This document shows positions 1 to 63,331 of a stretch of 63,419 nucleotides of DNA, one piece after another (position 1 is the stretch's first letter; each line of letters opens with the position of its first letter). Source of the DNA: Amoeboaphelidium occidentale (lineage: Eukaryota). The notes under the pieces were generated by a model, which saw nothing but the letters and a program-made list of their open reading frames with translations, did no database searches and was not told where the DNA came from. Position numbers and translations under genes: made by a program. The stretch is from positions 1 to 63,419 of the forward strand of contig JALGPX010000069.1 of assembly GCA_023515795.1 (NCBI GenBank). Direction: 5' to 3'.

Positions 1-54
1 CTTCCAGCATATGATCTACGCTGCGTTGGCCTTTTAATGGTAGAAAAATAGAAA

Positions 55-1424
55 TTATATAATTCCAACGATAACAATAAAGGAAATCCTCAAAATGGTG
101 CCAATATGGAGTTTTAACCAAGCTTGGATAAGCTTCTTTAAGTTCACAAAGCCTTCTGTGAAAATGGTCCAACGTCNAATGAGCGAATTCGAAGATATTG
201 CCATAAAGTCGTTCCACAACATTTTCACAGTTAGGAATCCGGTCGCGATTTTCATAAACGTTTCGAATAGCTTTTCCCGAGTGATTAATTGCAAAGTATT
301 CATAGTAAAAAGATGTGTCTGATGTTGCCGAGAAAATTGAAGAGCTAGACTTTTGAAACCGAAAAAGGTCTTCAAACTCCAGATTCAGTGCGATGATTCG
401 TATCATCTCTGGAGGTAGAGCCAAAAGTGAAACACCCTTTGACATTCGGTTGCCAAATATGTTGCTCATTGCTTCAAGGAAAAAGAGATNAACAGTAAAG
501 GAAATCCTCAAAATGGTGCCAATATGGAGTTTTAACCAAGCTTGGATAAGCTCCTTTAAGTTCACAAAGCCTTCTGTGAAAATGGTCCAACGTCACAAGT
601 CCTCCTAAAAGAATAACTTCACGCCAAAGTTTTTCCAAATATTTCCCCAATTCATAGCCAACGCGTTCAGTGTCAGACCCGAAAATTTATGGAAAAAAAT
701 TAGTATCTCTGCTGTATAAGGAATCTGCGTATATGTAGAAAAAATGAGCGAATTCGAAGATATTGCCATAAAGTCGTTCCACAACATTTTCACAGTTAGG
801 AATCCGGTCGCGATTTTCATAAACGTTTCGAATAGCTTTTCCCGAGTGATNCTTTAAGTTCACAAAGCCTTCTGTGAAAATGGTCCAACGTCGGAAGTCC
901 TCCTAAAAGAATAACTTCACGCCAAAGTTTTTCCAAAGATTTCCCCAATTCATAGCCAACGCGTTCAGTGTCAGACCCGAAAATTTTTGAAAAGATTCAG
1001 TATCTCTGCTGTATAAGGAATCTGCGTATATGTAGAACTAATGAGCGAATTCGAAGATATTGCCATAAAGTCGTTCCACAACATTTTCACAGTTAGGAAT
1101 CCGGTCGCGATTTTCATAAACGTTTCGAATAGCTTTTCCCGAGTGATTCTTTGCAAAGTATTCATAGTAAAAAGATATGTCTGATGTTGCCGAGAAAATT
1201 GAGGAGCTAGACTTTTGAAACCGAAAAAGGTCTTCAAACTCCAGATTCAGTGCGATGATTCGTATCATCTCTGGAGGTAGAGCCAAAAGTGAAACACCCT
1301 TTGACATTCGGTTGCCAAATATGTTGCTCATTGCTTCAAGGAAAAAGAGATAACACCATATTCGACCCAGATGAGTCACATTCCTGGAGGTAGTTGTCCA
1401 ATCGGGATCTAGGCGTATGATCAA
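55..1424 (-). pseudogene. F-box protein family fragments, repeated several times across N gaps, with stops and frameshifts
   Basis: F-box-like motif SLLALPPEMIRIIALNLEFEDLFRF in ORF 1038..1424. In-frame TAG after FAH and after LFF. The same segments recur across single n's at 177, 490 and 851. Confidence 0.55.
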
Positions 1425-1461
1425 TGAGTTGGCCCAAATATTACCAGGTAGTCTCTATTGC

Positions 1462-2554
1462 TTAGAGAGAAGACATTTGCAATATCAGAGGTTCCATAAG
1501 TGAGGTGCTTACAACTTTCGTTGTATATCCGTTTTTCTTTACAGCTGAAATAGACTGAGGTTTATGTCTTCCTGCTAGTTGTGTGAGTAACAACGAAAGT
1601 CTTGTATGATAAGACCCGTCAGGCTTAGAAATCCTGTTGGTTCTAACATTTGCAAACCTTTCGACCCCATTCAAAAGAATTACAGGAGGAAAGTCGTAAT
1701 CAACACGAAAGGCAATATTTGTCAGCCTCATGTATTCGTCAATCATCTCATCAACGCTGAAACCACGGCACATAGAAAGCCATCTATAAAACGCTGTTCC
1801 CGGATATGCGTCGGCCTCGATGTCTTTCCAAGCGATCGGAAAAAGAGACAACACTTTAGCTCTGAAGTAAATACCACCAACACATTTAAAACAAATCATC
1901 CTACACAAATAATGCACCATCAACCTCTGGAAGAAGGTTAAAACATTGTCGTTAAGGTGAATTCCGTCAAGTCCGAGTGAAACGTCAAACGACAATATCC
2001 TGCCACACTGTCCAGCTTTCACGATCTCTGGACAATTAAGGTGTTCCGGAATAGATTGTAATCCAATTGCTTTCAAGAGGGACTTCGCATCCATCCCGTG
2101 GCTCGCGCTGATGATAATCGGGCGGTATTTGTGATCCCTGAAACCATTATGAACATTCTCATTAATAGTCATCAGCATATCATCATTAACAGGAGCAACC
2201 GCAGCCTTGTCTCTCTTACGACCAAAGAACGGAAATTCAAGTGTGTAATATGATGGCCTAAAGTCAGGATAGTCCTCTTTCACTAAATGAAAAAATTAGA
2301 GTCCGGACATTACAGCGGGCCTTACATTCAGCAGGAGGCTGAAAATGACCAAGCGGGTGAGATACATTGTAAATGCTGAAGCCCTGCGAAAATCCAGCAA
2401 TTTTTACCCAATACTCCATAGGGCTTTGTATCCAAATCTCCATGATCGATCCAGCGCTTTCATGATAGTTTTGAAGCAAGTCATGCAGCCCCTTCCTTCT
2501 TAAGAGTTCAAGTAATTCTTCTATACTTGCTTTTCTATCCTGCTGATTACTCAT
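1462..2554 (-). CDS. Crinkler(CRN)-like protein with degenerate P-loop NTPase, possibly truncated or a pseudogene
   Basis: ORFs 2264..2554 and 1462..2283 join in frame through a 43-nt GTAAGG...TTTAG intron (2283-2325). FFGR...PIIISASHGMDAKSLL resembles a decayed Walker A region. Family assignment is from recalled similarity only. Confidence 0.45.
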
Positions 2555-2954
2555 TGCGAAAATTTGAAAGTATCAGGACCTTTTCAAAGTTGAGTTGGAA
2601 CAGTATGAAATTTAAACGAATCATCTATCAGAAAAGGCTTGGTTGTTCATAATACAGCTGCTTTCAAGGTTGAAGCCCGTGCTGCTTAAGAGCTTTTTAA
2701 AAGGAGTTTTGAGTTATACAGTTACGAGCTAGATGATCAGCTATGGAAGCTATTTTCTTGTTCTTTGTTTCAAATTGATTGCATTCATGCCGCGACTGGA
2801 AATCATCCTATAGATTACATATTCATAGAAAGCGACGTGCGAGAACTAACCAGGCTCAAGTAATACTCATATCGCGAGCAGAAACTTTGCAGACGGAACG
2901 CTACCTCTCTAAAAATCTTTAAATTCTCCACGAAAACATAATTAAAATGTGCAA

Positions 2955-3026
2955 GGCCCAATGGTTTAATGGTATAATACTCGGTTTGGGTCCGAGTGGT
3001 TCTGGGTTCGATTCCCAGTTGGGCCC
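2955..3026 (+). tRNA. tRNA-Pro(TGG)
   Basis: Acceptor GGCCCAA/TTGGGCC, anticodon arm CTCGG-TTTGGGT-CCGAG, T-loop GGTTCGATTCC, followed by an oligo-T Pol III terminator. Confidence 0.95.
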
Positions 3027-3237
3027 TTTTTTGCTTCTGTGAGGAATCGTTTTGGAAGGCTGCGGTGAAGGTCTTGATAAGTCTTTTTGCTCAGGGTCTT
3101 TACTGATTATTTNAGCGACGTGCGAGAACTAACCAGGCTCAAGTAATACTCATATCGCGAGCAGAAACTTTGCAGACGGAACGCTAACTCTCTAAAAATC
3201 TTTAAATTCTTTACGAAAACATAATTAAAATGTGCAA

Positions 3238-3309
3238 GGCCCAATGGTTTAATGGTATAATACTCGGTTTGGGTCCGAGTGGTTCTGGGTTCGATTCCCA
3301 GTTGGGCCC
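3238..3309 (+). tRNA. tRNA-Pro(TGG), second copy (probably an assembly duplicate across the n at 3113)
   Basis: Identical tRNA within a ~280-bp block repeated on both sides of a single n; the flanks differ at a few positions. Confidence 0.7.
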
Positions 3310-3694
3310 TTTTTTGCTTCTGTGAGGAATCGTTTTGGAAGGCTGCGGTGAAGGTCTTGATAAGTCTTTTTGCTCAGGGTCTTTACTGATTATTTTTTTA
3401 AAAAGCTACCTAGAGATCTCTCTTATTTTAATCTTACCTCTCATGTAAATGTGGCCGCTGCGAATACTTCATCTATTTTGCTTTCAGCGCAACTTCTTGG
3501 AGGGTAACGATATTAAACCGACATTCCAAGCTTCCGTTTATCTGATGTGACAGCATAAACATCCTCGTCCATTCAATTAGAGCTCAGACATTTTACTGGG
3601 TAGCGATGTCTGGAAGCGGTAACGCGAAATCTATTTATATAACTTTTTGCTTTTAACAGCAGAAATTGTTGCTACGATAAATCCAATTCACATA

Positions 3695-5911
3695 ATGTTT
3701 CACAAAAAGCAGACTTTATGCAGGTAAAACCATGAAAGCGAGAACCTGAGATATGTGTAGAGCTCGTTATGATTACAGGCCACAGGAATCGAATGAAATC
3801 GGTTTCAAGACAGGATCAACGATTGTTCTGATCGAAAAGCATAATGGAGACTGGTGGGAAGGAGAGATCGACGGTAAGAGGGGTCTGTTCCCCGCCAATA
3901 GAGTGGAGGAGATAGAATCGTTGATGGCAGAGGTATGATCGCGAAGTTTAAAGTATCATGACTTGTTAGAACCCAATACCTCCGGTCATGGCTGCTAAGC
4001 CGTCAATAATCAAGAAGAAAGATTCTTACGTAGGACCCGTAGAGCTTCCAGGAATGCAGCCTAATGTTGAGCAAAGAATGTCAACCCCAAGCATAATGCC
4101 TGATGATGATACAACTTCTAACATGGGATCTCTAAGCAATTTCGCACCAGGTTCAAGCGTTAAGTCTAAAGCCAACTTTCTTCAAAACCAGACGAGTTTC
4201 AGCTTACCTTCTATTGGAGAGCCGCCTAAAGTTCGTGTTCGAGTGAATTCTACGTTAAGTCAGGGCTCATCCACATCTTCTGGCCCCACGAGTGCACCAA
4301 ATTTAATCGCAGAGTTGAAACAACGCCGACCAGAAAGTTCAGTGCTTGAAGGGAATAGCATCGCTGAAGGTGAAATAGTACATTTTTGAGTAACTTATTT
4401 CGTAGAACTGAACAAGAGACTTGCTATGGCAGCAGGATTGTCGGCAAGTTCTATGCGTGCACGTGTTGGTTCAAATCCTCCAGTCCCTATGCACACGGAG
4501 TCTCAGCTGAAAGTGAGTCCCTTACCACAGCAAGGGACTGTAAGTGGAGATGAATCACCTCTATCTCTGTCTGAGGAAAATTTAAACGGCGTAGATGATG
4601 AATTTGATCAACCAGTGGCAAACTTGGAAGCAGCTCAGGCTTCAGAGGTCAAGAAGGAAGGATTTTTACAAAGAAGAAATGGAGATGATAAAAAGATGAC
4701 TTTAAGAGCGTGGAAATCATTCTGGACTGAGCTAGCAGGCAGCTCTTTGTACTTTTATAAAGATTCTCAAAGTAAAAAGGTGCTTTTAAGCTTATTACTG
4801 TACTAATAGTCTTAGAAAGAAGGAAAGAAGGATAAGCCTATCAAGATGATCGATATACGCCAAGCCAGACTTGATTTCAGCTCAAACTTAGATAAGAAGA
4901 AATATTCGTTCGCAATAACCACAGGGAAAGGAGAAGCCTTGTTCTTGGCTGCAAAAGACGAGGCTGAATTCCTTTCATGGCAAGAAGTATTGTTGGAGGT
5001 TCCTGGTGTCAAGAAAGAATCTATTGCAGAACAAAATCAGACTGTAACAAAGAGGCCTTCTGATTCAAACTCAAAAGCTGAAGCTACTCCTAAAATCGAA
5101 AAGAAATCTGTGCTAAAAAGAGCTCAACCAGAATTGAAGAAAAAATCTTCCTCTGCGAATGTTATTGAGGACGATTTACCTGAAGCTGATAGGAAAGCAT
5201 TTGCAAAGAAGTCTTTGTTGGGTTGGCTAACTTCACGTCCGCCTTTAGAAACATTGAAGGAGAAAGGTATCATCACAGAAGATTCGCTGTTTGGAGGAGA
5301 TTTGGCATTACATGTGCAAAAAGATCAGAGGAAAATACCTTTTGTTGTCGAGCAATGTATTCAGCATATCGAAAGCAAGGGCCTGGACTTTGTTGGTATT
5401 TATCGTTTGTCTGGAAACTTGGCATCGATCCAGAAATTGCGTTTCATGTACAACGAAGGTATAATATCATTTATAGATTACTGAATGATTATTAGGCCGC
5501 GCAAACATAGATTTAACAGCCGAAGAGTTCGCTGATATTAACATAATTACCGGACTTGTCAAATTGTACTTTAGAGAGTTACAGCAGCCTTTGTTCACAT
5601 TTGAAAAATATGATCCTTTAGTTAATGCAAGTAAAATTCAAGATGTAAGCACGAGAGTTGCACAAATGAGAGAACTTGTCAAGAAACTTCCTAAACCAAA
5701 CTACGAGACTTTGTGCTTCTTGATGAAACACTTGGTCAAAGTTGCTAAACTTTCCGATTCAAACAAGATGGACGCGACAAACTTGGGCATCGTTTTTGGC
5801 CCTACGCTTATGAGACCACAAGTGGAATCATTTGAATCGATACTTAATACTGCTGCTCACAGTATCGTTGTTGAGACGATCATAAACCACTTTGACGCGA
5901 TATTCAGGTGA
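3695..5911 (+). CDS. SH3-PH-RhoGAP protein (ARHGAP9/12/15/27-like), multi-exon
   Basis: SH3 (ARYDY...GDWWEG...GLFPAN), PH (KKEGFLQRR...WKSFWTEL), RhoGAP (GIYRLSG, KMDATNLGIVFGPTL). First intron 3724-3760 gives the start MFHKKQTLCRARYDY. Confidence 0.9.
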
Positions 5912-5932
5912 AGCCAAAGACTCTGTACAGTT

Positions 5933-6125
5933 AATCAACGAGTCATTGTACAATGACTCGCGCAGAGCCTAATAAATAGGATACAGATTTCTTTTTCGCG
6001 GCATTTTCTAGCGCATATTCTGAGGAAGTCGATTGTCTTAATTCTTTGTCTTTGGGCTTCTTCTTCTTCGGATTGTGCCCTTTCCTGTCTTTCTTGTTCA
6101 AACCATCGTCCTGTCCATCATTATC
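5933..6125 (-). ncRNA. Putative omegaRNA scaffold overlapping the Fanzor C-terminal coding tail
   Basis: Conserved with 63130-63331. Contains the perfect palindrome CGAGTCATTGTACAATGACTCG (5939-5960). Position is analogous to TnpB reRNA. Expression is not shown. Confidence 0.5.
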
Positions 6126-8671
6126 ATCGTCTGATTTATCGTCAGAAGGTTTACACAAATACTCAGGACGTTCTCCTTTCTCTAGAATAGCAGACAACGC
6201 AGCACACATGTTGTCAGCGGCCAATATATCTCGGTGGAATACGACGTTGCACTTTGAGCATTTCTTCGCCCTCATAGACAGCGATTCTGTGAACTCATGA
6301 CATCGGACAAATTTATGGGATTTAAAGTACTCATCTACGCCAAGAATCGTTATCCCCAAAGGCCTTGCTTCCCTCATAAAGTATTCCAAGAACGAAGTAT
6401 GAAGTGAACCAGTTGCGTCAAAGTCTCCAGTGCCAATGCCAACATAAATCCGCTGTTTCTTTTTGACCTTCTGATGTGGTTTCAAGCAAACCATGAAAAT
6501 CAAAGCAATGAAAACACGATCCATCTCCCTTTGCTTTGCACAATGATACTCAAAGGTCCTCTTCCTAATAGCATGTGAATTGTAAAAATTAGCCAAAACT
6601 GTGTATCTTTCAATCATTCTGTTGAAATAATTAGTGATTGTTTCATCTGGAAGTCGGGAGAGGCCACAATTCTCTGCATCTCTTACAGGCTTGTTCTCAT
6701 CTTTCATCTTTGTCTTGTTCAGCCAGTTTCTGTAAAGAGTATACGGTTCACCAAGAGCCTTCTTCTTAACAGCTAGATTCTTCTTTGAGCCGTCTGGCAA
6801 CCACGAAACAGCTCCAACAGTAAAGGCCTGACCAAGATCTAGTCCCATGATGATATCTGTGTCTTTCCTATATGCGGGGTCTCTTGAAACAATTGGTGGA
6901 GGTTGAGTGTGCTTGACTTTCCTACATCTTGTATCAATTACGTTGACTGATAGACTGAAACCATCAGTAGCAAAAGAAGTCATCAAAACGAATCTCTTAC
7001 CAGAATCTTCCTGACCAATTGTTCTGTACTTTCTGTACTTCTTGCTCTTCAACCCAAATACCAGTTGCACCAATTCCCCAGTTCTTTCCAGTGTCATCAA
7101 CAGCCCATCTTTTTTAGGATCGAGAAAATCCTTAAACCATAGCCTGGAGTCCATGGTACCTGTAATACCAAGAAGACAGTCTTCCGTAAGACTTAGAGGA
7201 AACAAAGACGGCTGATATTTTGGCATGTATTTGTATCGCTGCGAAACCGGCAGCAGATTGTTCATAGCGAAGAAAAGCCTAACAATCGAAAAAGTTTCCA
7301 ACTTTGAAGGGTCGAATTCTGGAATTTTCGGTTCTGGCTTTGTTTCTNAACCATGAAAATCAAAGCAATGAAAACACGATCCATCTCCCTTTGCTTTGCA
7401 CAATGATACTCAAAGGTCCTCTTTCTAATAGCATGTGAATTGTAAAAATTAGCCAAAACTGTGTATCTTTCAATCATTCTGTTGAAATAATTAGTGATTG
7501 TTTCATCTGGAAGTCGGGAGAGGCCACAATTCTCTGCATCTCTTACAGGCTTGTTCTCATCTTTCATCTTTGTCTTGTTCAGCCAGTTTCTGTAAAGAGT
7601 ATACGGTTCACCAAGAGCCTTCTTCTTAACAGCTAGATTCTTCTGTGAGCCGTCTGGCAACCACGAAACAGCTCCAACAGTAAAGGCCTGACCAAGATCT
7701 AGTCCCATGATGATATCTGTGTCTTTCCTATATGCGGGGTCTCTTGAAACAACTGGTGGAGGTGGAGTGTGCTTGACTTTCCTACATCTTGTATCAATAA
7801 CGTTGACTGATAGGCTCAAACCGTCAGTAGCAAAAGAAGTCATCAAAACGAATCTCTCACCAGAATCTTCCTGACCAATTGTTCTGTACTTTCTGTACTT
7901 CTTGCTCTTCAACCCAAATACCAGTTGCACCAACTCCCCAGTTCTTTCCAGTGTCATCAACAGCCCATCTTTTTTAGGATCGAGAAAATCCTTAAACCAT
8001 AGCCTGGAGTCCATGGTACCTGTAATACCAAGAAGACAGTCTTCCGTAAGACTTAGAGGAAACAAAGACGGCTGATATTTTGGCATGTATTTGTATCGCT
8101 GCGAAACCGGCAGCAGATTGTTCATAGCGAAGAAAAGCCTAACAACCGAATAAGTTTCCAACTTTGAAGGGTCGAATTCTGGAATTTTCGGTTCTGGTTT
8201 TGTTTCTTCAGCGTATTCGCCCAGCTTGCGCTTCCTCGATCGCAAATTCATAAATCCACTCGTACGCTGCGGCANNNNNNNNNNNNNNNNNNNNTTTCCA
8301 ACTTTGAAGGGTCGAATTCTGGAATTTTCGGTTCTGGCTTTGTTTCTTCAGCGTATTCGCCCAGCTTGCGCTTCCTCGATCGCAAATTCATAAATCCACT
8401 CGTACGCTGCGGCACTTTGGTATCAACTTCATTCAAATTATCTATTAATTCCTCATTAACCAAACTATCTAAAGCATTAGAAGAAACCTAAGTAAGACTT
8501 ACCTTCAGATGATCCCTCTAACTCTGACAATTCCCCCTTCTTCTCGACAGCCAATACCACACAGTCCAACAGTCGCTTAGCTTGATCCGTTTGAGATGGT
8601 GCATTTTCTTCAACGCTTTGTGCAAGCAACGGTGCACTACCAATATAATGCCTGGCAATCATAGCGTCCAT
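5943..8671 (-). CDS. Fanzor/TnpB-like RNA-guided endonuclease region (C-terminal part of the fusion gene; 7349-8274 largely duplicated by assembly)
   Basis: RuvC-I IMGLDLGQ, RuvC-II-like GVDEYF just before the zinc finger (FVRC...CSKC), RuvC-III HRDILAADN. A 34-nt intron at 8469-8502 joins the upstream ORFs in frame. Confidence 0.8.
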
Positions 8672-8680
8672 GAGGCTTCC

Positions 8681-9540
8681 TTAAGACTGCAAAGTATTTC
8701 CAGTGCAAAAAGGTACAAACATTAATTCTTCTTCAGACAAGACCAGGCCAAGAGAATTATCTTCTATGAATTGTTTAATCTTTTGAAAGAGCCTGGGACC
8801 TTTGTGACAACACCTGTTCGGCTTCAATAGATAGGCGAGTAAATTCGACCAAACCTTTGCACCACCACGTGTATCAAAAAACAATTCATTTTCCACTTTC
8901 AAGTTATTCTGAACATTTTGGAAGAACAATTCTGCTATTTCTAACGCAGCGTGTGATGCCTTGTTCACCAAAAGCACAACCATTTTAATACGTTGCAAAA
9001 TGGTATTCTGGATTTGTGAATCTAACGAAGACTGATGAATTCGACTTTTAAGAGTTCCAAGACGCCAAGTCTTCGTTTGATACATTTGGTGAAGTTTCTG
9101 CATATCCAATGTTGATTTTGATAGCTTGTTGGGCCCATGTGGATTCAAAGATGGCGTTGANNNNNNNNNNNNNNNNNNTGAATCTAACGAAGACTGATGA
9201 ATTCGACTTTTAAGAGTTCCAAGACGCCAAGTCTTCGTTTGAAACATTTGGTGAAGTTTCTGCATATCCAATGTTGATTTTGATAGCTTGTTGGGCCCAT
9301 GTGGATTCAAAGATGGCGTTGACCTGGTTCTCTTGTCTGACTTAAGGTGTTTTGCCTTCTTTTTTTCTTCTTTCTTTGTTTTTTCTTTGAGATCTTCTTT
9401 GTTGATGATTTCAAAGGGACCAAAGAAGAGCTTGTTACGTCCTTCAAAGTTATTGGCTCCATTAATTGTTCCTTAGAAATCGATTTCACCTTGAAGCGGC
9501 CATACTCACAATGAATCAAAGGTGAGAAGCGGTTTTTCGC
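8681..9540 (-). CDS. Middle, Lys-rich segment of the XPG-Fanzor fusion gene (interrupted)
   Basis: ORF 9307..9519 is in frame with the XPG ORF past one TAA at 9541-9543. A frameshift then leads into ORF 8681..9310, which is in frame with 8477..8671 past one TAA at 8681-8683. Confidence 0.6.
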
Positions 9541-10764
9541 TTAAGGCAATTTAAGATTTTTCAGTTGAACAACAGTCCTTCCCTGCGTAATTTGGTGTTT
9601 AACTGCACGCAAAGCCTTGTACTGCTCCCTTTTTGAGTTTAGCGTTTCACGACAATCATTGAACAAACCATCACTTGAACTTTCAATGCATACCTCACAC
9701 TTTGTTTCTTTGAGAGTTAAAAACACAGCGACAGCGTTTTGAAAATGGCCTTCCTTAGCGGGCGCATGCTCAAATTCACTTACAAGTTCTTCTGCTTTGT
9801 ATGTATGGTTTTCATCAATTCTCTGAATTTCCTCCAAACATTTAGCAATACCAAAATTCCGCACATTAGTAACATAATCGTTACCCGCTATGACCGCTAA
9901 GGCTCTCCAACATTCTCTCGTAACACACAGTTTTCTTAAAATAGTATCTTCACGAAAAATGGTGAAATGCATCGAGTNGTTTTCATCAATTCTCTGAATT
10001 TCCTCCAAACATTTAGCAATACCAAACTTCCGCACATTAGTAACATAATCGTAACCCGCTATGGCCGCTAATGCTCTCCAACATTCTCTCGTAACACACA
10101 GTTTTCTTAAAATAGTATCTTCACGAAAAATGGTGAAATGCATCGAGTTGGTGTCATATTTGTTCTGCAAGAATGGTCTTGCAACAATCTTGTATCCATA
10201 GAATAGACTGTCCGAATCATTGGAGACAACTACAGCTCTTGACTGATCATCAGAATTTAACTGTGTGACGAGACGCGAAATCTCTACATCTGATTCAAAC
10301 TCAGCATTAACTATTTTCAAAATTGCTGATACTAATGCTTCTGAAATGCTTTTAGTACATGTCTCTGTAATTCTAAAACAGGAAAACTTGAGCTTATCTA
10401 GTCTTCGCCACTTTGATTTAGAAACTTTGCCTTGAATTTTAATGCCTGCCAAGGCCTCTGAGAACAATTTCAATTTAGTTTCTCGTTGACTGTCCCTTGC
10501 CACGTGTGTATCATGTTTCTCCATTGATCTTGCCCCATCTAAGACAAAAACAACATCTACACCTGAGAAGACGTTTGCCAAACACTTGGCCAAGGCTGCA
10601 TATTGATTGTCCAACGCGTAATAACGAATGAGATTGTAAAAACTCCCATAAAGATCCACATAGACCTTCGAGCCCTTAAACATCGTCTTGAATTCTTGGA
10701 GATTTAAAGTTTCAGAGTACAACTGATGTTTCTTGGCAAAAGCACTAAACCCTTTAACGCCCAT
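9541..10764 (-). CDS. XPG/FEN1/Rad2-family (PIN-fold) structure-specific nuclease domain, N-terminal part of the fusion gene
   Basis: MGVKG start, YVDL, FVLDG...EK...R, EFESD, SNDSD, H3TH GNDY...FGI motifs. An internal ~58-aa repeat flanks the n at 9978. Confidence 0.85.
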   Translation of the reverse strand: MGVKGFSAFAKKHQLYSETLNLQEFKTMFKGSKVYVDLYGSFYNLIRYYALDNQYAALAKCLANVFSGVDVVFVLDGARSMEKHDTHVARDSQRETKLKLFSEALAGIKIQGKVSKSKWRRLDKLKFSCFRITETCTKSISEALVSAILKIVNAEFESDVEISRLVTQLNSDDQSRAVVVSNDSDSLFYGYKIVARPFLQNKYDTNSMHFTIFREDTILRKLCVTRECWRALAAIAGYDYVTNVRKFGIAKCLEEIQRIDENXSMHFTIFREDTILRKLCVTRECWRALAVIAGNDYVTNVRNFGIAKCLEEIQRIDENHTYKAEELVSEFEHAPAKEGHFQNAVAVFLTLKETKCEVCIESSSDGLFNDCRETLNSKREQYKALRAVKHQITQGRTVVQLKNLKLP

Positions 10765-11322
10765 TTAATTATTATATTATGTAGTAGTAGAAGAGTGAGT
10801 TAAATGATAATTTTCGTAAAAAAGCGAAAAAATTATCTGATCGGCGACAGCGCAACCGATAGCTTGAAAATGAAGTGTAGAATATCTCACGGGGAGCAAA
10901 ACTATTTGTATTCTACGATTAAGCTTCTGGTTACTTCGCAAAATGATATTCTATTCTCTTAAAATTCTCCGCGATTTTCGATCTTTGCAGCAAATGGGTT
11001 CAAAGGAGAGCGAATACTTCGAAACAGAACTGAAGAGTCAACCAAATGATCTAATAGAGATGTATGCAACGACGTTTTAGCGTTTAAACAAATTGCTTCA
11101 AAAACAATTAGATTTCAAGATCCAATGATATTTGAGTGTTTGTACACACATGTAACCTTGAACGATCAAATCACCCAATGATATCGCCGGATTTTGACGA
11201 ATTGGCCAATGATATTGCAGGATTTTTATTGAGCTAGATATACCCCCTTTAAGAAAGCGCATTCGCACTCCAGCTCGCAGCATGTAGACGCTTGAGCTGG
11301 ATCTCTACAATTACTAAAAAAT

Positions 11323-11739
11323 CTATTGCCTGTGATCTTCTTCTGTAGTCTCTACAGTTCCATCAGGTCTGGTTATTGTCTTTATCGTGTGACAGAATCG
11401 TTTTACGTCGCAATTTGTGCGTATCTCTTCAACAGTTCCATCAGCTTTCACTATCCTCTTAGTGTTCTCAGTAGAACCATCAGGAAGCATACGAAAAGAA
11501 GATGAGCTTCTTGAGCTGCTGAAAAATCGTGAATGGTCCGTCTCTTGCTGAGATTGCGGATTGCGTAATATCGACGCCTTGAGTGCTGCTGGTGACGTAT
11601 CGGACTGCGATGCTCCAAATTGCTGTGGTTGCTGGTACTCATCAAAATCCACAGGCAGAAAAAATTTGTCCAACATGGAGAACGATCTATTGAAGAGTTC
11701 CTCTAGTAAATCCTCAGGTGGATTCGGCGGTTTGTTCAT
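11323..11739 (-). CDS. Small hypothetical protein, HAX1-like C-terminus
   Basis: 138-aa ORF with repeated PDG/ADG-T-V-E-E turns (KADGTVEEIRT, RPDGTVETTEE) reminiscent of HAX1. Confidence 0.45.
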   Translation of the reverse strand: MNKPPNPPEDLLEELFNRSFSMLDKFFLPVDFDEYQQPQQFGASQSDTSPAALKASILRNPQSQQETDHSRFFSSSRSSSSFRMLPDGSTENTKRIVKADGTVEEIRTNCDVKRFCHTIKTITRPDGTVETTEEDHRQ

Positions 11740-11769
11740 CGAGCTGGGAGTTTCAATTCGCGAAAATAA

Positions 11770-14046
11770 TCAAGCCGTTTCATCTTGCGCATTCGAGCCA
11801 AGCTTCAGGAGAGTTAGCGCGAAATCCCAAAAGCTTTTCCCTTCTTCTCTCATATCAAGCATAGAAGATGGAATCAAGTAAGCAATCATTTGCATGTCCA
11901 TAAAGATGTCTGTGTAGCAGGAGCCCGAATTAGTCGTGAACGGATAATTCTGAATGAAAAATACCTCAAGCTCATTGAGTAACTTATCTGTGCCTATTGT
12001 ACGAGTCTTGTAATTTGTCATGTCGAATGAAATGTTATCAACAATCCTTTCTTCCAGCTGTCGAATGGTCACAAGTTTGTAATAAGGGCTGCACGTTTTG
12101 GACATTTCAAACGCAAACCAGCTGGCCAAAGAAGAAGAACAAGATCGTGACTTACGGGTTATAAATTGATTAGAGAATGCCAAATCCTTGTTTGTTGATG
12201 AGAAGAATCGTGAATTAAACAAATCGTTGCACAGTAAATCCATAAAGTATCTAGAATACTTTTCAATTTCTTCTTTCTGTGAGCTATTAGACTTCTGCCA
12301 CATAAATTCTGTGAATTTGAAAACAGAAAAACTGTGAATCGAATGGATTAAAGGAAAGCAGGAATGTACAGGTTCCTCTGGCGGTAGTATTTGTATGATA
12401 TCTTTTCGTCTCAGGAATTCCACAACTTCCAAAGGATTAACAGGCTCAGCAGACCTTTTTTCAATCTGGGTCAAAGCATCTCTAAAATCTTGAGAGGATT
12501 TCAGCCGTAACTGATAAAATTGCTTCGCCAGTTTCCTTTGCTTTCTTTCGTGCTTATTTTCAATTTTTCGCATCCAAATAGATTGTTCTCGTTTAACTGA
12601 TGACTGTAAAGCCAAGAGTAAGCTATTATTGTGTTCATAGACATTCAAATGGCTCTCAAGATCTGTGAGTGTTTCCATTATTGCTGTTTCGTCCAATTTC
12701 GCTATTGAAGTAAAGAACGATGAATCGCTAATGTTAGCCCTGGATAGAATCTTGTTCAGCGTGCTTTTCCGTTTAGCATCATATTCTTTAACTGCGTGCA
12801 TTGGTGAAAGTAATTCTAAATACGCCGTAGATGGATGAACATTTCCGTTAATCTGGATAAAAAGAGACACTTCATTTCTCCTTTCCATGTGTTTTGATAT
12901 GTAGGTCAGTGCAAAATTGCTGCGCTCATCGCTTGGTATAACTTTTAAGAGCGTGAACAAATCACTAATACTCAGCATAAACATAGGAAAAGCTTCTGGA
13001 AACAATTGTGGGTGTAGACTATCACATCGAGTAGTATTGAAGTCTCTTATAATTTCAAGTATTGAAGCAAATCCAGATGAAAGTGTTGGCGTGGTTGAAC
13101 CATTTTCGACATGAAGGTAAAATGAGCAAGCTGAAGAGTAAATTAGTTGATAAATCTTTACCATCACACCCAAGATGAAAGTTTCAGATACAAGCCTATC
13201 TTCGAATACATCAGACGACAGTATAATCTTGCCAAGAAGCTTCCGAAAGAAAACCTGGACAACACAAACATTAAGAAGCGCAGTATCCATCGTGGAAATT
13301 AAATCTTGATACAAAACCATGAGGACCCATGGAAACTTTGTCAGAGATTCCTCAAGACCTTTCAAGATCTTTATCGCAAACTGCTCCACTTGATCTTGAC
13401 AAACATCAGTGTTCACGTGTACAGTTTTCCATATTTCAACCAAGACAGGTTCGATCTCATTTTTAATAAGAACATCCACTTCAAATAAAGAAAACAAGAA
13501 GAACAATATATGCGTAATAGAATGAGAATGTTTGCATAAAGATATAAGTCTTTTGTAGAATCTGTAGCAGAGAACTTGTTCTGATTTGTGATCAAAAATG
13601 TCCAATATACACGATGTATACAGGAACAGTATAGCCTTTAGATCTTCAGACATCTTTTGCGTATATGGATTATTGATCTCGTCAGAGAACGTTGTAAACA
13701 CAATCTCAGCAAGCTCTTCAGGATTGTCGCGACAAAAGTGTAGCATTTCGATTACTGATGCTTTCATCTTTTCAGAAAACCACGCCATGAAGCCGTCTTT
13801 TACTTTGCTTCCAAGCTGTTGCTCCAACTTGTCATTAGATTTTAGTTGGTCTTTCAGTGTGATCAAGTCGTGTTCGTCGTGTTGTTTTCCAATAGGAGTG
13901 TCTTTCACGACTTCCCATAAGTATTCTCTACGCATTGCAAGATTCCGTAAGTGATCATCCATAATACTTGAGATATTTTCGCATTGCGATTCCTCAGCGG
14001 CTATATTCATCAAAGACAGGCGAAGTATCTTTGTCTCCATGATCAT
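11770..14046 (-). CDS. Hypothetical protein with probable C-terminal VPS9 (Rab5 GEF)-like domain and possible RasGAP-like middle region
   Basis: 758-aa ORF; C-terminal IGTDKLL...GKSFWDFAL resembles fungal VPS9-domain proteins. Confidence 0.5.
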   Translation of the reverse strand: MIMETKILRLSLMNIAAEESQCENISSIMDDHLRNLAMRREYLWEVVKDTPIGKQHDEHDLITLKDQLKSNDKLEQQLGSKVKDGFMAWFSEKMKASVIEMLHFCRDNPEELAEIVFTTFSDEINNPYTQKMSEDLKAILFLYTSCILDIFDHKSEQVLCYRFYKRLISLCKHSHSITHILFFLFSLFEVDVLIKNEIEPVLVEIWKTVHVNTDVCQDQVEQFAIKILKGLEESLTKFPWVLMVLYQDLISTMDTALLNVCVVQVFFRKLLGKIILSSDVFEDRLVSETFILGVMVKIYQLIYSSACSFYLHVENGSTTPTLSSGFASILEIIRDFNTTRCDSLHPQLFPEAFPMFMLSISDLFTLLKVIPSDERSNFALTYISKHMERRNEVSLFIQINGNVHPSTAYLELLSPMHAVKEYDAKRKSTLNKILSRANISDSSFFTSIAKLDETAIMETLTDLESHLNVYEHNNSLLLALQSSVKREQSIWMRKIENKHERKQRKLAKQFYQLRLKSSQDFRDALTQIEKRSAEPVNPLEVVEFLRRKDIIQILPPEEPVHSCFPLIHSIHSFSVFKFTEFMWQKSNSSQKEEIEKYSRYFMDLLCNDLFNSRFFSSTNKDLAFSNQFITRKSRSCSSSLASWFAFEMSKTCSPYYKLVTIRQLEERIVDNISFDMTNYKTRTIGTDKLLNELEVFFIQNYPFTTNSGSCYTDIFMDMQMIAYLIPSSMLDMREEGKSFWDFALTLLKLGSNAQDETA

Positions 14047-30632: not shown

Positions 30633-32618
30633 TTAGGAGAAGTTTGCAACAACTATAGGCTGAATCACTTCATCTAGATTCTCAAATGTCGCATACTTAG
30701 CCACCATCACACTGTAAACTCCGCCAGGCTCAGTAGAATCTCTTGGAAGAGGACATAGGAAACTGAATGTGCTCCATTCTTGAGGGCGAACAATTGCATG
30801 ACTCAAAGCATCATCATATTCACAACGAGTTGAAACACCACCAAGAGCAACAGATGATTCACAAATACGAACAACAGCAGTCGGAAGATCAGCGCGTGAG
30901 CTCTTGTAACTGACAGATATAGTAGTTTCTTCTCCTGGAGTACAAGGTAATGAATTATATGCAACAGACCAACCACAGTTTCTCATTTCAGAGTAAGGTC
31001 TTACATTTCTTTCGCATTTAGCTGTAGTGGATGCTCCTGCAGTTCTTACTCTTACTTTGGTTTTGTTCAAATTGTTCATGGCATAATTTGTTTCCAAATC
31101 ACAAACAGGACGAGTAGCATTCACAGATTTCTTCATTAATTTGAAACGCTCTTCTTCTTTGTGCAAGATCTGTTTCTTTGGCTTCTCAGTCAACGCTGGC
31201 AGACCTTCGCACATGAATCCATAGGTATTAATTCTAGTTCTCAGAACTCTTGTCCTATCATCATTAATTTTTGTGATGTCGACCCATTGACAAGGTGATC
31301 CAACAGGTATTGTGTATGCCCAACCTGATGAGATGCCCTGCCAGTCACAAGAATCATAATCAGTTGCCAAAGGAGAGTATTCGTGGTTCTGCAAACGCTG
31401 GGTATCATGAACACAAGTTGCGATCGGAACTCCTTGAAGTTTAGCAAGAGAGTAATTTCCAAACAATGTATACTTGAAATCTCCTGCACATTTATCATAT
31501 GAATAAATACCAGAGTCAATAAAAAGAGAAGGATTTCCTTCTTTACCAAACCTTGCAACGTTCAAGAATCTAGCGATACCAGTATTCAAAGCATTTGTTG
31601 AAAACGTCAATAATCTTCTCCATCCTGTTCCAGTTACACATGGAGTGCTAGAAGCATAACAACTATCAGGAGGAAAGTAGCGGTAAACAACTTTTGCATC
31701 TTTAACATCAGGAACTGCAAGATCTCTCTCACGAATTGCAGAACCAACACGATATTTCTTTGCAAGACTTTCTTTGTATGGAATTCTTGTCCATGTAACA
31801 TTGACTCTTTCAATACCAGAGAATAATTCCAAAGAATCCAAACAAGAAAACTCAGAATCGTGGAAGACATGACATTGATGATCAGGATTTAACCTTCCAC
31901 CTGTGCAGGTATCATCAAAGAACATCCTTAAATTTAAGTTTCAACTTAAAGGAAAAAGTTACCAAGCATTAAAAGAATTTGCAGAATCCAAGGAAAGCCT
32001 AGACTCGTCAATACAAGCGAAACCAGTTCTTTGTAAGAAATAATCAGTATCTCTGGGAAACACGACGGTATCAACCCACTGGCCACCTTCTTCAGCAAGG
32101 GAAGGCTACAGAACATCAGCATTTAGCAATTTTAAAAGTACCTCAGCAAGTTTAACGGATCCACGCCTCGCAACAACGACGCTCTCAAACGTGTACTCCA
32201 TCGCGATAAACTTATTGTCGCCTTCATTGATCTCAAACGGACCGCGACCATTTGGGTCGATCTTAATTTTCCATACTTTCTCTGGTGGGAACACTAATTG
32301 GCCCTTTTCTTCGCCCGGGTAATAAAATCTTCTGTAGACTTGTTTGTGCAGTGTAAACTTTGCTTGTTGTCTAGCCTTCTTCAGCCAGTAATTCTTTGGA
32401 GGATTCTTAAAACCATTAAGCAATGTCTCAATAGTCTTCTCTGTGAACTCTTGACCATCCAAGTTAGTAGGAACCAAGGATGCAACCACTGAAGTGTAAG
32501 ACACGGAAATCAAAGCGCCAGGATTCGGGTCGAAAGCGCTGATTTCCTGAAACTCCGGTTTCTTCTGGCACATGATGAAGGGCAGCAGTGCAAAGAAACT
32601 TAAAAGTCTTTTAGTCAT
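30633..32618 (-). CDS. Secreted lysyl-oxidase-like protein, multi-exon, apparently lacking the copper-binding His motif
   Basis: Signal peptide MTKRLLSFFALLPF; GWRRLLTFSTNALNTG and QGISSGW...CQWVDIT resemble the LOX catalytic domain. Confidence 0.6.
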
Positions 32619-63129: not shown

Positions 63130-63331
63130 AATCAACGAGTCATTGTACAATGACTCGCGCAGAGCCTAATACATAGGATGCAGATTTCTTTTTAGCGGCA
63201 TTTTCTAGCGCATATTCTGAGGAAGTCGATTGTCCTGGTTCTTTGTCTTTGGGCTTCTTTTTCTTCTTCTCCTTCGGATTGCGCCCATTCCTGTCTTTCT
63301 TGTTCAAACCATCGTCCTGTCCACCATTATC
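63130..63331 (-). repeat. Second copy of the Fanzor element 3' end (omegaRNA-like region) without the nuclease core
   Basis: Aligns with 5933-6125 with substitutions and a 9-nt in-frame insertion; same palindrome at 63136-63157; unrelated sequence on both sides. Confidence 0.85.

Follow-up and report, generated by a model that had tools for sequence, protein, structure and literature searches.

Fanzor1 (Fz1) nucleases, the closest described counterparts of the protein analyzed here, take an RNA from the 3' end of their element together with the adjoining flank as guide and recognize an AT-rich target-adjacent motif (TAM), and the two Fz1 proteins tested cut 14-21 nt away (PMC10432273, PMC13565253). 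The biological role of Fanzors is described as still open (PMC10432273). Among the possible carriers, Helitron2 transposons have asymmetric inverted repeats of 8-15 bp situated 0-2 bp (5') and 20-30 bp (3') from their ends, and the Fanzor-bearing Helitron2 elements CRe-1/2/3 insert after TTTT and display 5' truncation and 7-19 bp duplications (PMC3627910). Herein we describe a minus-strand gene of the aphelid Amoeboaphelidium occidentale, located on contig JALGPX010000069.1, the whole 63,419 nt of which are referred to as the window. An earlier, sequence-only reading had proposed a flap endonuclease fused to a Fanzor/TnpB-like RuvC nuclease. The analysis established that the gene joins a FEN1/EXO1-type PIN domain to a Fanzor1 part, and such PIN-Fanzor1 proteins represent a real, recurrent and apparently undescribed variant of Fanzor1.

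The gene comprises seven open reading frames (ORFs; 9541-10764, 9307-9540, 8681-9472, 8477-8680, 8248-8487, 7262-8347 and 5943-7409), the coordinates of which were confirmed, as was their proposed chaining into one gene, given that the same-species paralog P0166 is colinear and the related locus L001 reads as one frame. Four N-flanked duplications (170, 144, 120 and 859 nt) accounted for the suspected assembly duplicates; when contigs of three runs (X1, X2 and X3) were compared with the window, contig X1-4 bridged two of them as single copies, the other two being absent from the listed joints. After deduplication, the coding sequence amounted to 3,452 nt and would need one more base to make up 1,151 codons; the sequence-only reading had put the protein at roughly 1,100-1,200 aa. 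Excision of the predicted 34-nt GT..AG intron (8502-8469) restored colinearity with P0166, and the single frameshift announced for the Lys-rich linker was recovered as a -1 offset relative to this paralog. Both in-frame TAA codons reported previously are present in the assembly, but the one at 9541-9543 is not borne out by the contigs (Table 1). An alternative code (TAA/TAG = Gln) was ruled out by 27 stop-free frames of at least 300 codons, with 472 CAA/CAG codons and 15 TAA ends, and the standard code is also indicated by the lack of the first TAA in the covering contigs of all three runs. An assembly chimera of two genes was likewise ruled out by the contig joints, the single frame of L001 and the open, colinear P0166.

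As for the domains themselves, the first ORF matched Pfam XPG_I (E 3e-7, above cut-off) and the last Cas12f1-like_TNB (E 2e-5, just below cut-off). The window PIN matched EXO1 by phmmer (E 0.0025) and retained the complete acidic set expected of Rad2/FEN1, plus a basic gateway pair. The RuvC part yielded no phmmer match in the PDB, whereas the family profile did. Its D-E-D set with the Glu preceding the zinc finger was found as previously stated; what had gone unremarked is that the assembly finger lacks its first Cys and one Thr (paralogs read E-Y-F-T-S-Q-K-C). The contigs over 6310-6322 carry other letters than this damaged finger and may be paralog contigs.

To place both halves structurally, an AlphaFold model of the relative P0015 (predicted local distance difference test, pLDDT, 83) was used, as a single-sequence fold of P0004 was unusable (pLDDT 35). 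Residues 1-301 superimposed on FEN1/EXO1 with Z scores of 21.0/20.9 (root-mean-square deviation, rmsd, 2.8-2.9; 264-270 residues aligned; 16-21% identity), consistent with a PIN/FEN fold with H2TH, and residues 438-1098 superimposed on SpuFz1 with Z 18.2 (rmsd 3.4, 473 residues aligned). The long linker between them was predicted to be disordered (pLDDT < 50 at 354-403). SpuFz1 was also the top profile match (E 4e-17 over 297 positions) and ranked first by Foldseek, so that the match to a Fanzor fold on which the sequence-only reading had staked its proposal was obtained; matches to TnpB, Cas12f and Fz2 profiles were confined to the finger region. The Fanzor1 pattern D-X(125-275)-[TS]-[TS]-X-X-C4 finger-RD was present, its RuvC-II Glu preceding the finger by six residues. 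The Fanzor2/IS607EU type did not apply, since the fold is of the 660-residue Fz1 type and no recombinase occurred among the 36 window ORFs scanned. By profile and model comparison, the C-terminal part is Fanzor1.

The fusion recurs among relatives. L001 contains PIN, middle region and RuvC in one stop-free, intron-free frame of 1,289 codons for which no gene model is needed, and P0166, a gene model to which a host WH2 N-terminus has been joined in error, is open from PIN through RuvC, with 45-83% identity to the window per segment; the uninterrupted homologs called for by the sequence-only reading thus exist, and the halves are not always separate. Among 323 phmmer relatives, 13 of the 150 listed are at least 850 aa, and a profile search detected PIN in 11 of these 13 among the matches listed, a count that is partly circular as the profile was built from the same proteins. 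Independent evidence is weaker for single proteins, with Pfam XPG families at E < 0.05 in four of the 13, and XPG_I exceeded its cut-off in the window, P0005, P0012 and P0166; it is strong for the family as a whole, the PIN profile of which matched Rad2 (E 4e-19) and FEN1 (E 7e-18). A PIN lies upstream on the same strand in 15 of 59 metagenome loci, and in 14 of the 15 the sequence changes frame at places that recur between loci and are likely introns. The named members belong to Actinomortierella, Dissophora and Mortierella.

The seven acidic residues and gateway Lys/Arg of FEN1/EXO1/XPG were present in the family, and catalytic residues persist across fungal lineages. All 12 positions that we take to be catalytic or gateway residues of PIN-Fanzor proteins are retained in 7 of 14 aligned proteins (8 of 14 counting one D-to-E exchange, in P0113); five of the remaining six are models with truncations or gaps, and in P0034 the gateway Lys column is additionally occupied by Asp. 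The RuvC D-E-D is kept in 13 of 14, the exception being a truncated model. Trees of PIN and RuvC from 13 proteins had 4 of 10 splits in common (r 0.68), which suggests co-inheritance at shallow depth. As regards the alignments, A6 misplaced PIN fragments and A7 dropped 35 of 123 rows, including all PIN-only and middle fragments; a profile search with A5 yielded three proteins. In viral contigs, 68 pattern matches gave no confirmed case. A related RuvC region also occurs in a 959-aa open frame at L054:3-2879, which has no detectable PIN or Pfam domain. In rows 630 and 1394 of supplement file 3 of PMC10432273, two further aphelid proteins (1,219 and 783 aa) have PIN-like acidic N-terminal motifs by eye, and row 630, which lacks the FZ1 label, hints at a second PIN-Fanzor lineage.

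Searches of the literature at title/abstract level, with Repbase, most subscription journals and bioRxiv supplements beyond reach, found no description of a PIN-Fanzor fusion, nor did term look-ups in PMC5499597, PMC10530073 with two supplements, PMC10711439, PMC11423790 and PMC12923547. The passages of PMC10432273 examined do not mention a FEN1/EXO1 nuclease on a Fanzor, and in its supplementary tree table (Saito et al., 2023; 18 of 26 species rows) P0166 and P0063 are entered under FZ1 as hypothetical proteins, without any XPG label.

The ends of the element, its empty site and its Helitron2-like terminal anatomy go beyond the sequence-only reading. The element separates two host ORFs that converge on it, lying between their stop codons; these ORFs end at 5911 (+) and 11323 (-). 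Empty-site joints connected 5934 to 11315 in X2 and 5935 to 11319 in X3, contigs of these two runs being without the insertion. Loose contig ends occurred behind 11306 in 13, 10 and 11 contigs of X1, X2 and X3, respectively, with many other flanks, and at 5933 in five contigs of X1, again with other flanks. The stretch 5935-11314 is therefore a bounded multicopy mobile insertion, larger than the gene. In the 5' region, summed contig depth, which gives no copy number, reached about 160x that of the flank in X1 and about 80-90x in X2/X3 over 11096-11302 (loose ends at 11107, 11215 and 11231), probably reflecting a large family of short non-autonomous elements with a common 5' end. Five copies of a ATATCATT-like motif lie at 10810-11216 (-) in this 5' region and may be sites for a transposase or transcription factor.

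The element ends look Helitron2-like: a 10-bp asymmetric repeat lies 0 nt (5') and 23 nt (3') from the ends, hairpins occur at both ends, the 5' one including the repeat, the element starts with a 5'-T and the target sites of its copies are T-rich. The repeat match was equalled by 122 of 200,000 random pairs, its 5' letters being the loose-end consensus of other copies, as the window copy has lost six. No MULE (Mutator-like element) similarity was seen in the window, whose element ends are asymmetric and do not conform to the MuDR/MULE type with its terminal inverted repeats and 9-bp duplications. Taken together with the base that follows them, the eight nucleotides of the 5' junction agree with the 3' flank in 7 of 9 positions (chance 0.006), possibly a degenerate target-site duplication. 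The truncated copy at 63132-63331 is possibly a guide-RNA-only cassette.

Table 1. Positions of the element, its gene and its terminal features in the window.
Feature	Position	Strand	Basis and remarks
Whole mobile element	5935..11314	(-)	Empty-site joints; 4,047 bp after removal of assembly duplicates
5' junction, 8 nt replacing first 6 nt of other copies	11306..11314	(-)	Loose ends
5' subterminal hairpin	11270..11300	(-)	DNA folds, sequence; extends over the 5' asymmetric repeat with the letters of other copies
FEN1/EXO1/XPG-type PIN domain	9808..10764	(-)	XPG_I, EXO1 and Rad2 matches; Z 21; includes one ~170-nt assembly duplicate
TAA, assembly only	9541..9543	(-)	Leucine codon in all covering contigs of X1, X2, X3 (place 9542)
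Lys-rich linker with -1 frame offset	9310..9452	(-)	One base short versus P0166; A7 run at 9367-9361
Fanzor1 part: WED/REC, RuvC D-E-D	6027..9265	(-)	Glu six residues before zinc finger; three assembly duplicates inside
Second in-frame TAA	8681..8683	(-)	Aligned with Gln of P0166
Predicted 34-nt intron, GTAAGT..CTAAT..TTAG	8469..8502	(-)	Read from sequence; colinearity with P0166
3' asymmetric terminal inverted repeat, 10 bp	5958..5967	(-)	23 nt from end, just ahead of the 22-bp palindrome; complements first 10 nt of other copies
Perfect 22-bp terminal palindrome with stop codon	5939..5960	(-)	Followed by TTGA and TT flank; end of predicted omega-RNA
Second, 5'-truncated copy, last ~200 bp only	63132..63331	(-)	91% identical, same end, different flank

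The copy in the window is probably damaged, because the linker frameshift persists in the contigs and the second TAA stands in the assembly, and we consider it fairly probable that this copy makes no full fusion protein; slippage at the A-run is possible, as are two products made apart. In X1 the linker has the same length without gaps and the -1 offset is retained; in the diverged contig of X2/X3 it shows a net change of -6 nt and the offset is apparently kept, as judged from table coordinates across a masked repeat. Since the X2/X3 contigs are 6-15% diverged and their letters leave the upstream frame open and close the downstream one at 9454-9452, and since an ATG at 9265 opens the Fanzor fold, the subfamily might make its halves as two products (PIN alone, plus either a Fanzor with a start of its own or a fusion produced by slippage). 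Alternatively, the offset might be an inherited inactivating lesion in copies still moved in trans. This explanation, which we rank as the most improbable of those considered, has to contend with the indirect X2/X3 coordinates, with the same-species paralogs P0004, P0005 and P0166, whose gene models are open across the linker, and with the linker itself, in which neither a canonical intron nor a perfect slippery heptamer was seen by eye.

No transposase was found in the element or among the 36 window ORFs scanned. The earlier statement to this effect thus held for the window but failed for the family, as 6 of the 12 loci holding the PIN start have a MULE-like gene oriented head-to-head with that of the PIN (three distinct elements, Mortierella-like; Pfam MULE at E 6e-4 to 9e-3, which is below cut-off, and SWIM at E 9e-7). 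Five of the six PIN-start loci without a MULE match hold less than 600 bp upstream. A poly-T at L010:683 was ruled out as a 5' end, lying inside the MULE-like gene. MULE-like genes further abut the 3' end of a PIN-Fanzor element at L011:6991-8572 and precede a truncated Fanzor at L032:207-2769, in nested or tandem elements.

The six loci without a MULE match, the lack of a transposase in the element and the window ORFs scanned and the 3'-intact, 5'-truncated copies would also suit an element that moves by itself, cutting, resection and host repair synthesis sufficing as a new homing-type class. We regard such self-mobility as unlikely: the precise common 5' ends with an asymmetric repeat fit recognition by RepHel, half of the PIN-start loci do have a MULE-like gene and most of the others are short upstream, and homing alone would leave new, non-homologous sites unexplained.

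Because PIN accompanies Fanzor across both Helitron2-like and MULE-like carriers, its task is more plausibly linked to Fanzor than specific to a carrier. This counts against the view that PIN acts away from the Fanzor break, either trimming 5' flaps or RNA-DNA hybrids that arise as the element transposes or as R-loops are turned over, or maturing the guide RNA, with Fanzor serving only to tether it to the sites of the element. Rolling-circle and strand-displacement synthesis do yield 5' flaps, and FEN1/EXO1-type enzymes also cut RNA in hybrids; together with the equal nearness of the PIN fold to FEN1 and EXO1 and the disordered linker between the domains, these properties make that view the least unlikely of the alternatives, although we still hold it to be rather improbable.

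The omega-RNA candidate region has a sharp common 3' end and a variable flank. In Mortierella-like relatives the 3' ends show a sharp boundary behind conserved stems, unlike the aphelid end, and structure at z < -2 was found in 10 of 18 such relatives, chosen for carrying the motif, versus 2 of 13 flank controls. A covarying 5-bp stem showed 8 compensated cells (0 of 500 shuffles, relatedness uncontrolled), and RNAalifold on alignment A8 returned the first stem only. A perfect hairpin (stem of at least 8) near the stop was present in 1 of 43 metagenome loci, and the aphelid end type is therefore not family-wide. Rfam at gathering score gave no match in L001, L010 and L038, and in window positions 2500-12000 only tRNA-related matches at 2955-3309.

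Taken together, we favor, at a probability of roughly 55%, a reading in which a transposase-less, probably damaged Helitron2-like element encodes a PIN-Fanzor1 protein that would cut empty sites under RNA guidance, resect the break and favor copying of the element back. By analogy with Fanzor1 biochemistry, the omega-RNA would arise from the last ~100-200 nt and continue into the flank, which would act as its guide; the TAM recognized would be T-rich, and the break would fall ~14-21 nt into the flank. The tethered PIN might then degrade the 5' ends at the break, favoring homologous synthesis over end-joining, and the flank-side 3' end might invade the occupied allele so that the element would be copied from its 3' end inward. 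Complete copying would restore the element, whereas early release would join a truncated element to the target stub and produce a short target duplication. New sites would be reached through a transposase supplied in trans from the host genome, namely RepHel for the window element and a MULE-like enzyme in the Mortierella-like relatives.

Several observations weigh against this reading. The -1 offset between the halves, common to X1 and apparently to the diverged X2/X3 contigs, implies that this subfamily may not make the fusion. Relatives without PIN exist (P0152, L054 and L016), so PIN is dispensable for some, and the deep splits of the PIN and RuvC trees disagree (6 of 10). RepHel was not located, none being among the 36 window ORFs scanned; the 7/9 junction match was noticed post hoc and the copy at 63132-63331 has no target duplication; and the 3' 216 nt of the aphelid element showed no more folding than shuffled versions did (z -0.33). 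Finally, MmeFz2 edited less when engineered as an exonuclease fusion (PMC12923547), a result that could be taken for or against the favored reading.

More tentatively still, and with somewhat less than even odds, the favored reading may extend to an old, undescribed clade of RNA-guided effectors with two nucleases in early-diverging fungi and aphelids, in which Fanzor1 would cut and a tethered EXO1/FEN1-like domain would resect and so force homologous copying. The clade would have switched carriers, Helitron2-like in some cases and MULE in others. An abortive homing event would be recorded in the 5' junction of this copy (which would also explain CRe-type duplications), and slippage at the A-run may determine how much PIN-only product is made relative to the fusion.

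In eukaryotes, end-joining competes with homologous repair. A Fanzor with its own end-processing nuclease would thus allow the homing model to be tested directly in this setting, and for such a test the window locus supplies both element ends, an empty site, a candidate TAM and a guide flank, and intact intron-free members such as L001 exist. PIN-Fanzor would also be a natural counterpart of engineered nuclease-exonuclease fusions, and because such engineered fusions impaired MmeFz2 (PMC12923547), its evolved geometry could inform editing tools.

Elsewhere in the window, a tRNA gene is seen twice (2955-3026 and 3238-3309, +), the pair being a 282-nt N-flanked assembly duplicate. In the region 44-2295 (-), short F-box-like ORFs are interwoven with N-flanked duplicates, and there is a 277-aa ORF to which Pfam assigned no domain. 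The 435-aa ORF at 30636-31940 (-) matched the lysyl oxidase domain of Pfam (E 1.8e-5, above cut-off).

In comparison with known systems, PIN-Fanzor has in common with SpuFz1 (PDB 8gkh/9cez; PMC10432273) the whole WED-REC-RuvC-zinc-finger fold, the rearranged Glu and, for the window element, a gene that occupies the 3' end of an element lacking a transposase. It differs in adding ~430 N-terminal residues that hold the FEN1/EXO1 nuclease, and the window element ends in hairpins and an asymmetric repeat instead of the 30-nt terminal inverted repeats of the SpuFz1 element (PMC10432273). With FEN1/EXO1/Rad2 the PIN part shares the fold, the N-terminal MG start, the acidic set and the K-x6-R gateway, but it is transposon-borne and fused to Fanzor in place of a host C-terminal tail. 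The MuDR-type Fanzor1 elements ROr-4, PBl-3 as well as MCi-4 (PMC3627910) resemble L010-L013, L035 and L038 in their MuDR context and their occurrence in early-diverging fungi; they are without a MuDR transposase, and the passages cited describe no PIN for them. Closest in terminal anatomy are CRe-1/2/3 (Bao and Jurka, 2013; PMC3627910), for which no PIN is reported ("flap" and "exonuclease" are absent from the text available) and the ends of which were matched to RepHel elements: like the window element, they have asymmetric repeats, hairpins at both ends, a 5'-T, a T-rich target and 5'-truncated copies, and the target duplications on their truncated copies resemble the 5' junction match found here.

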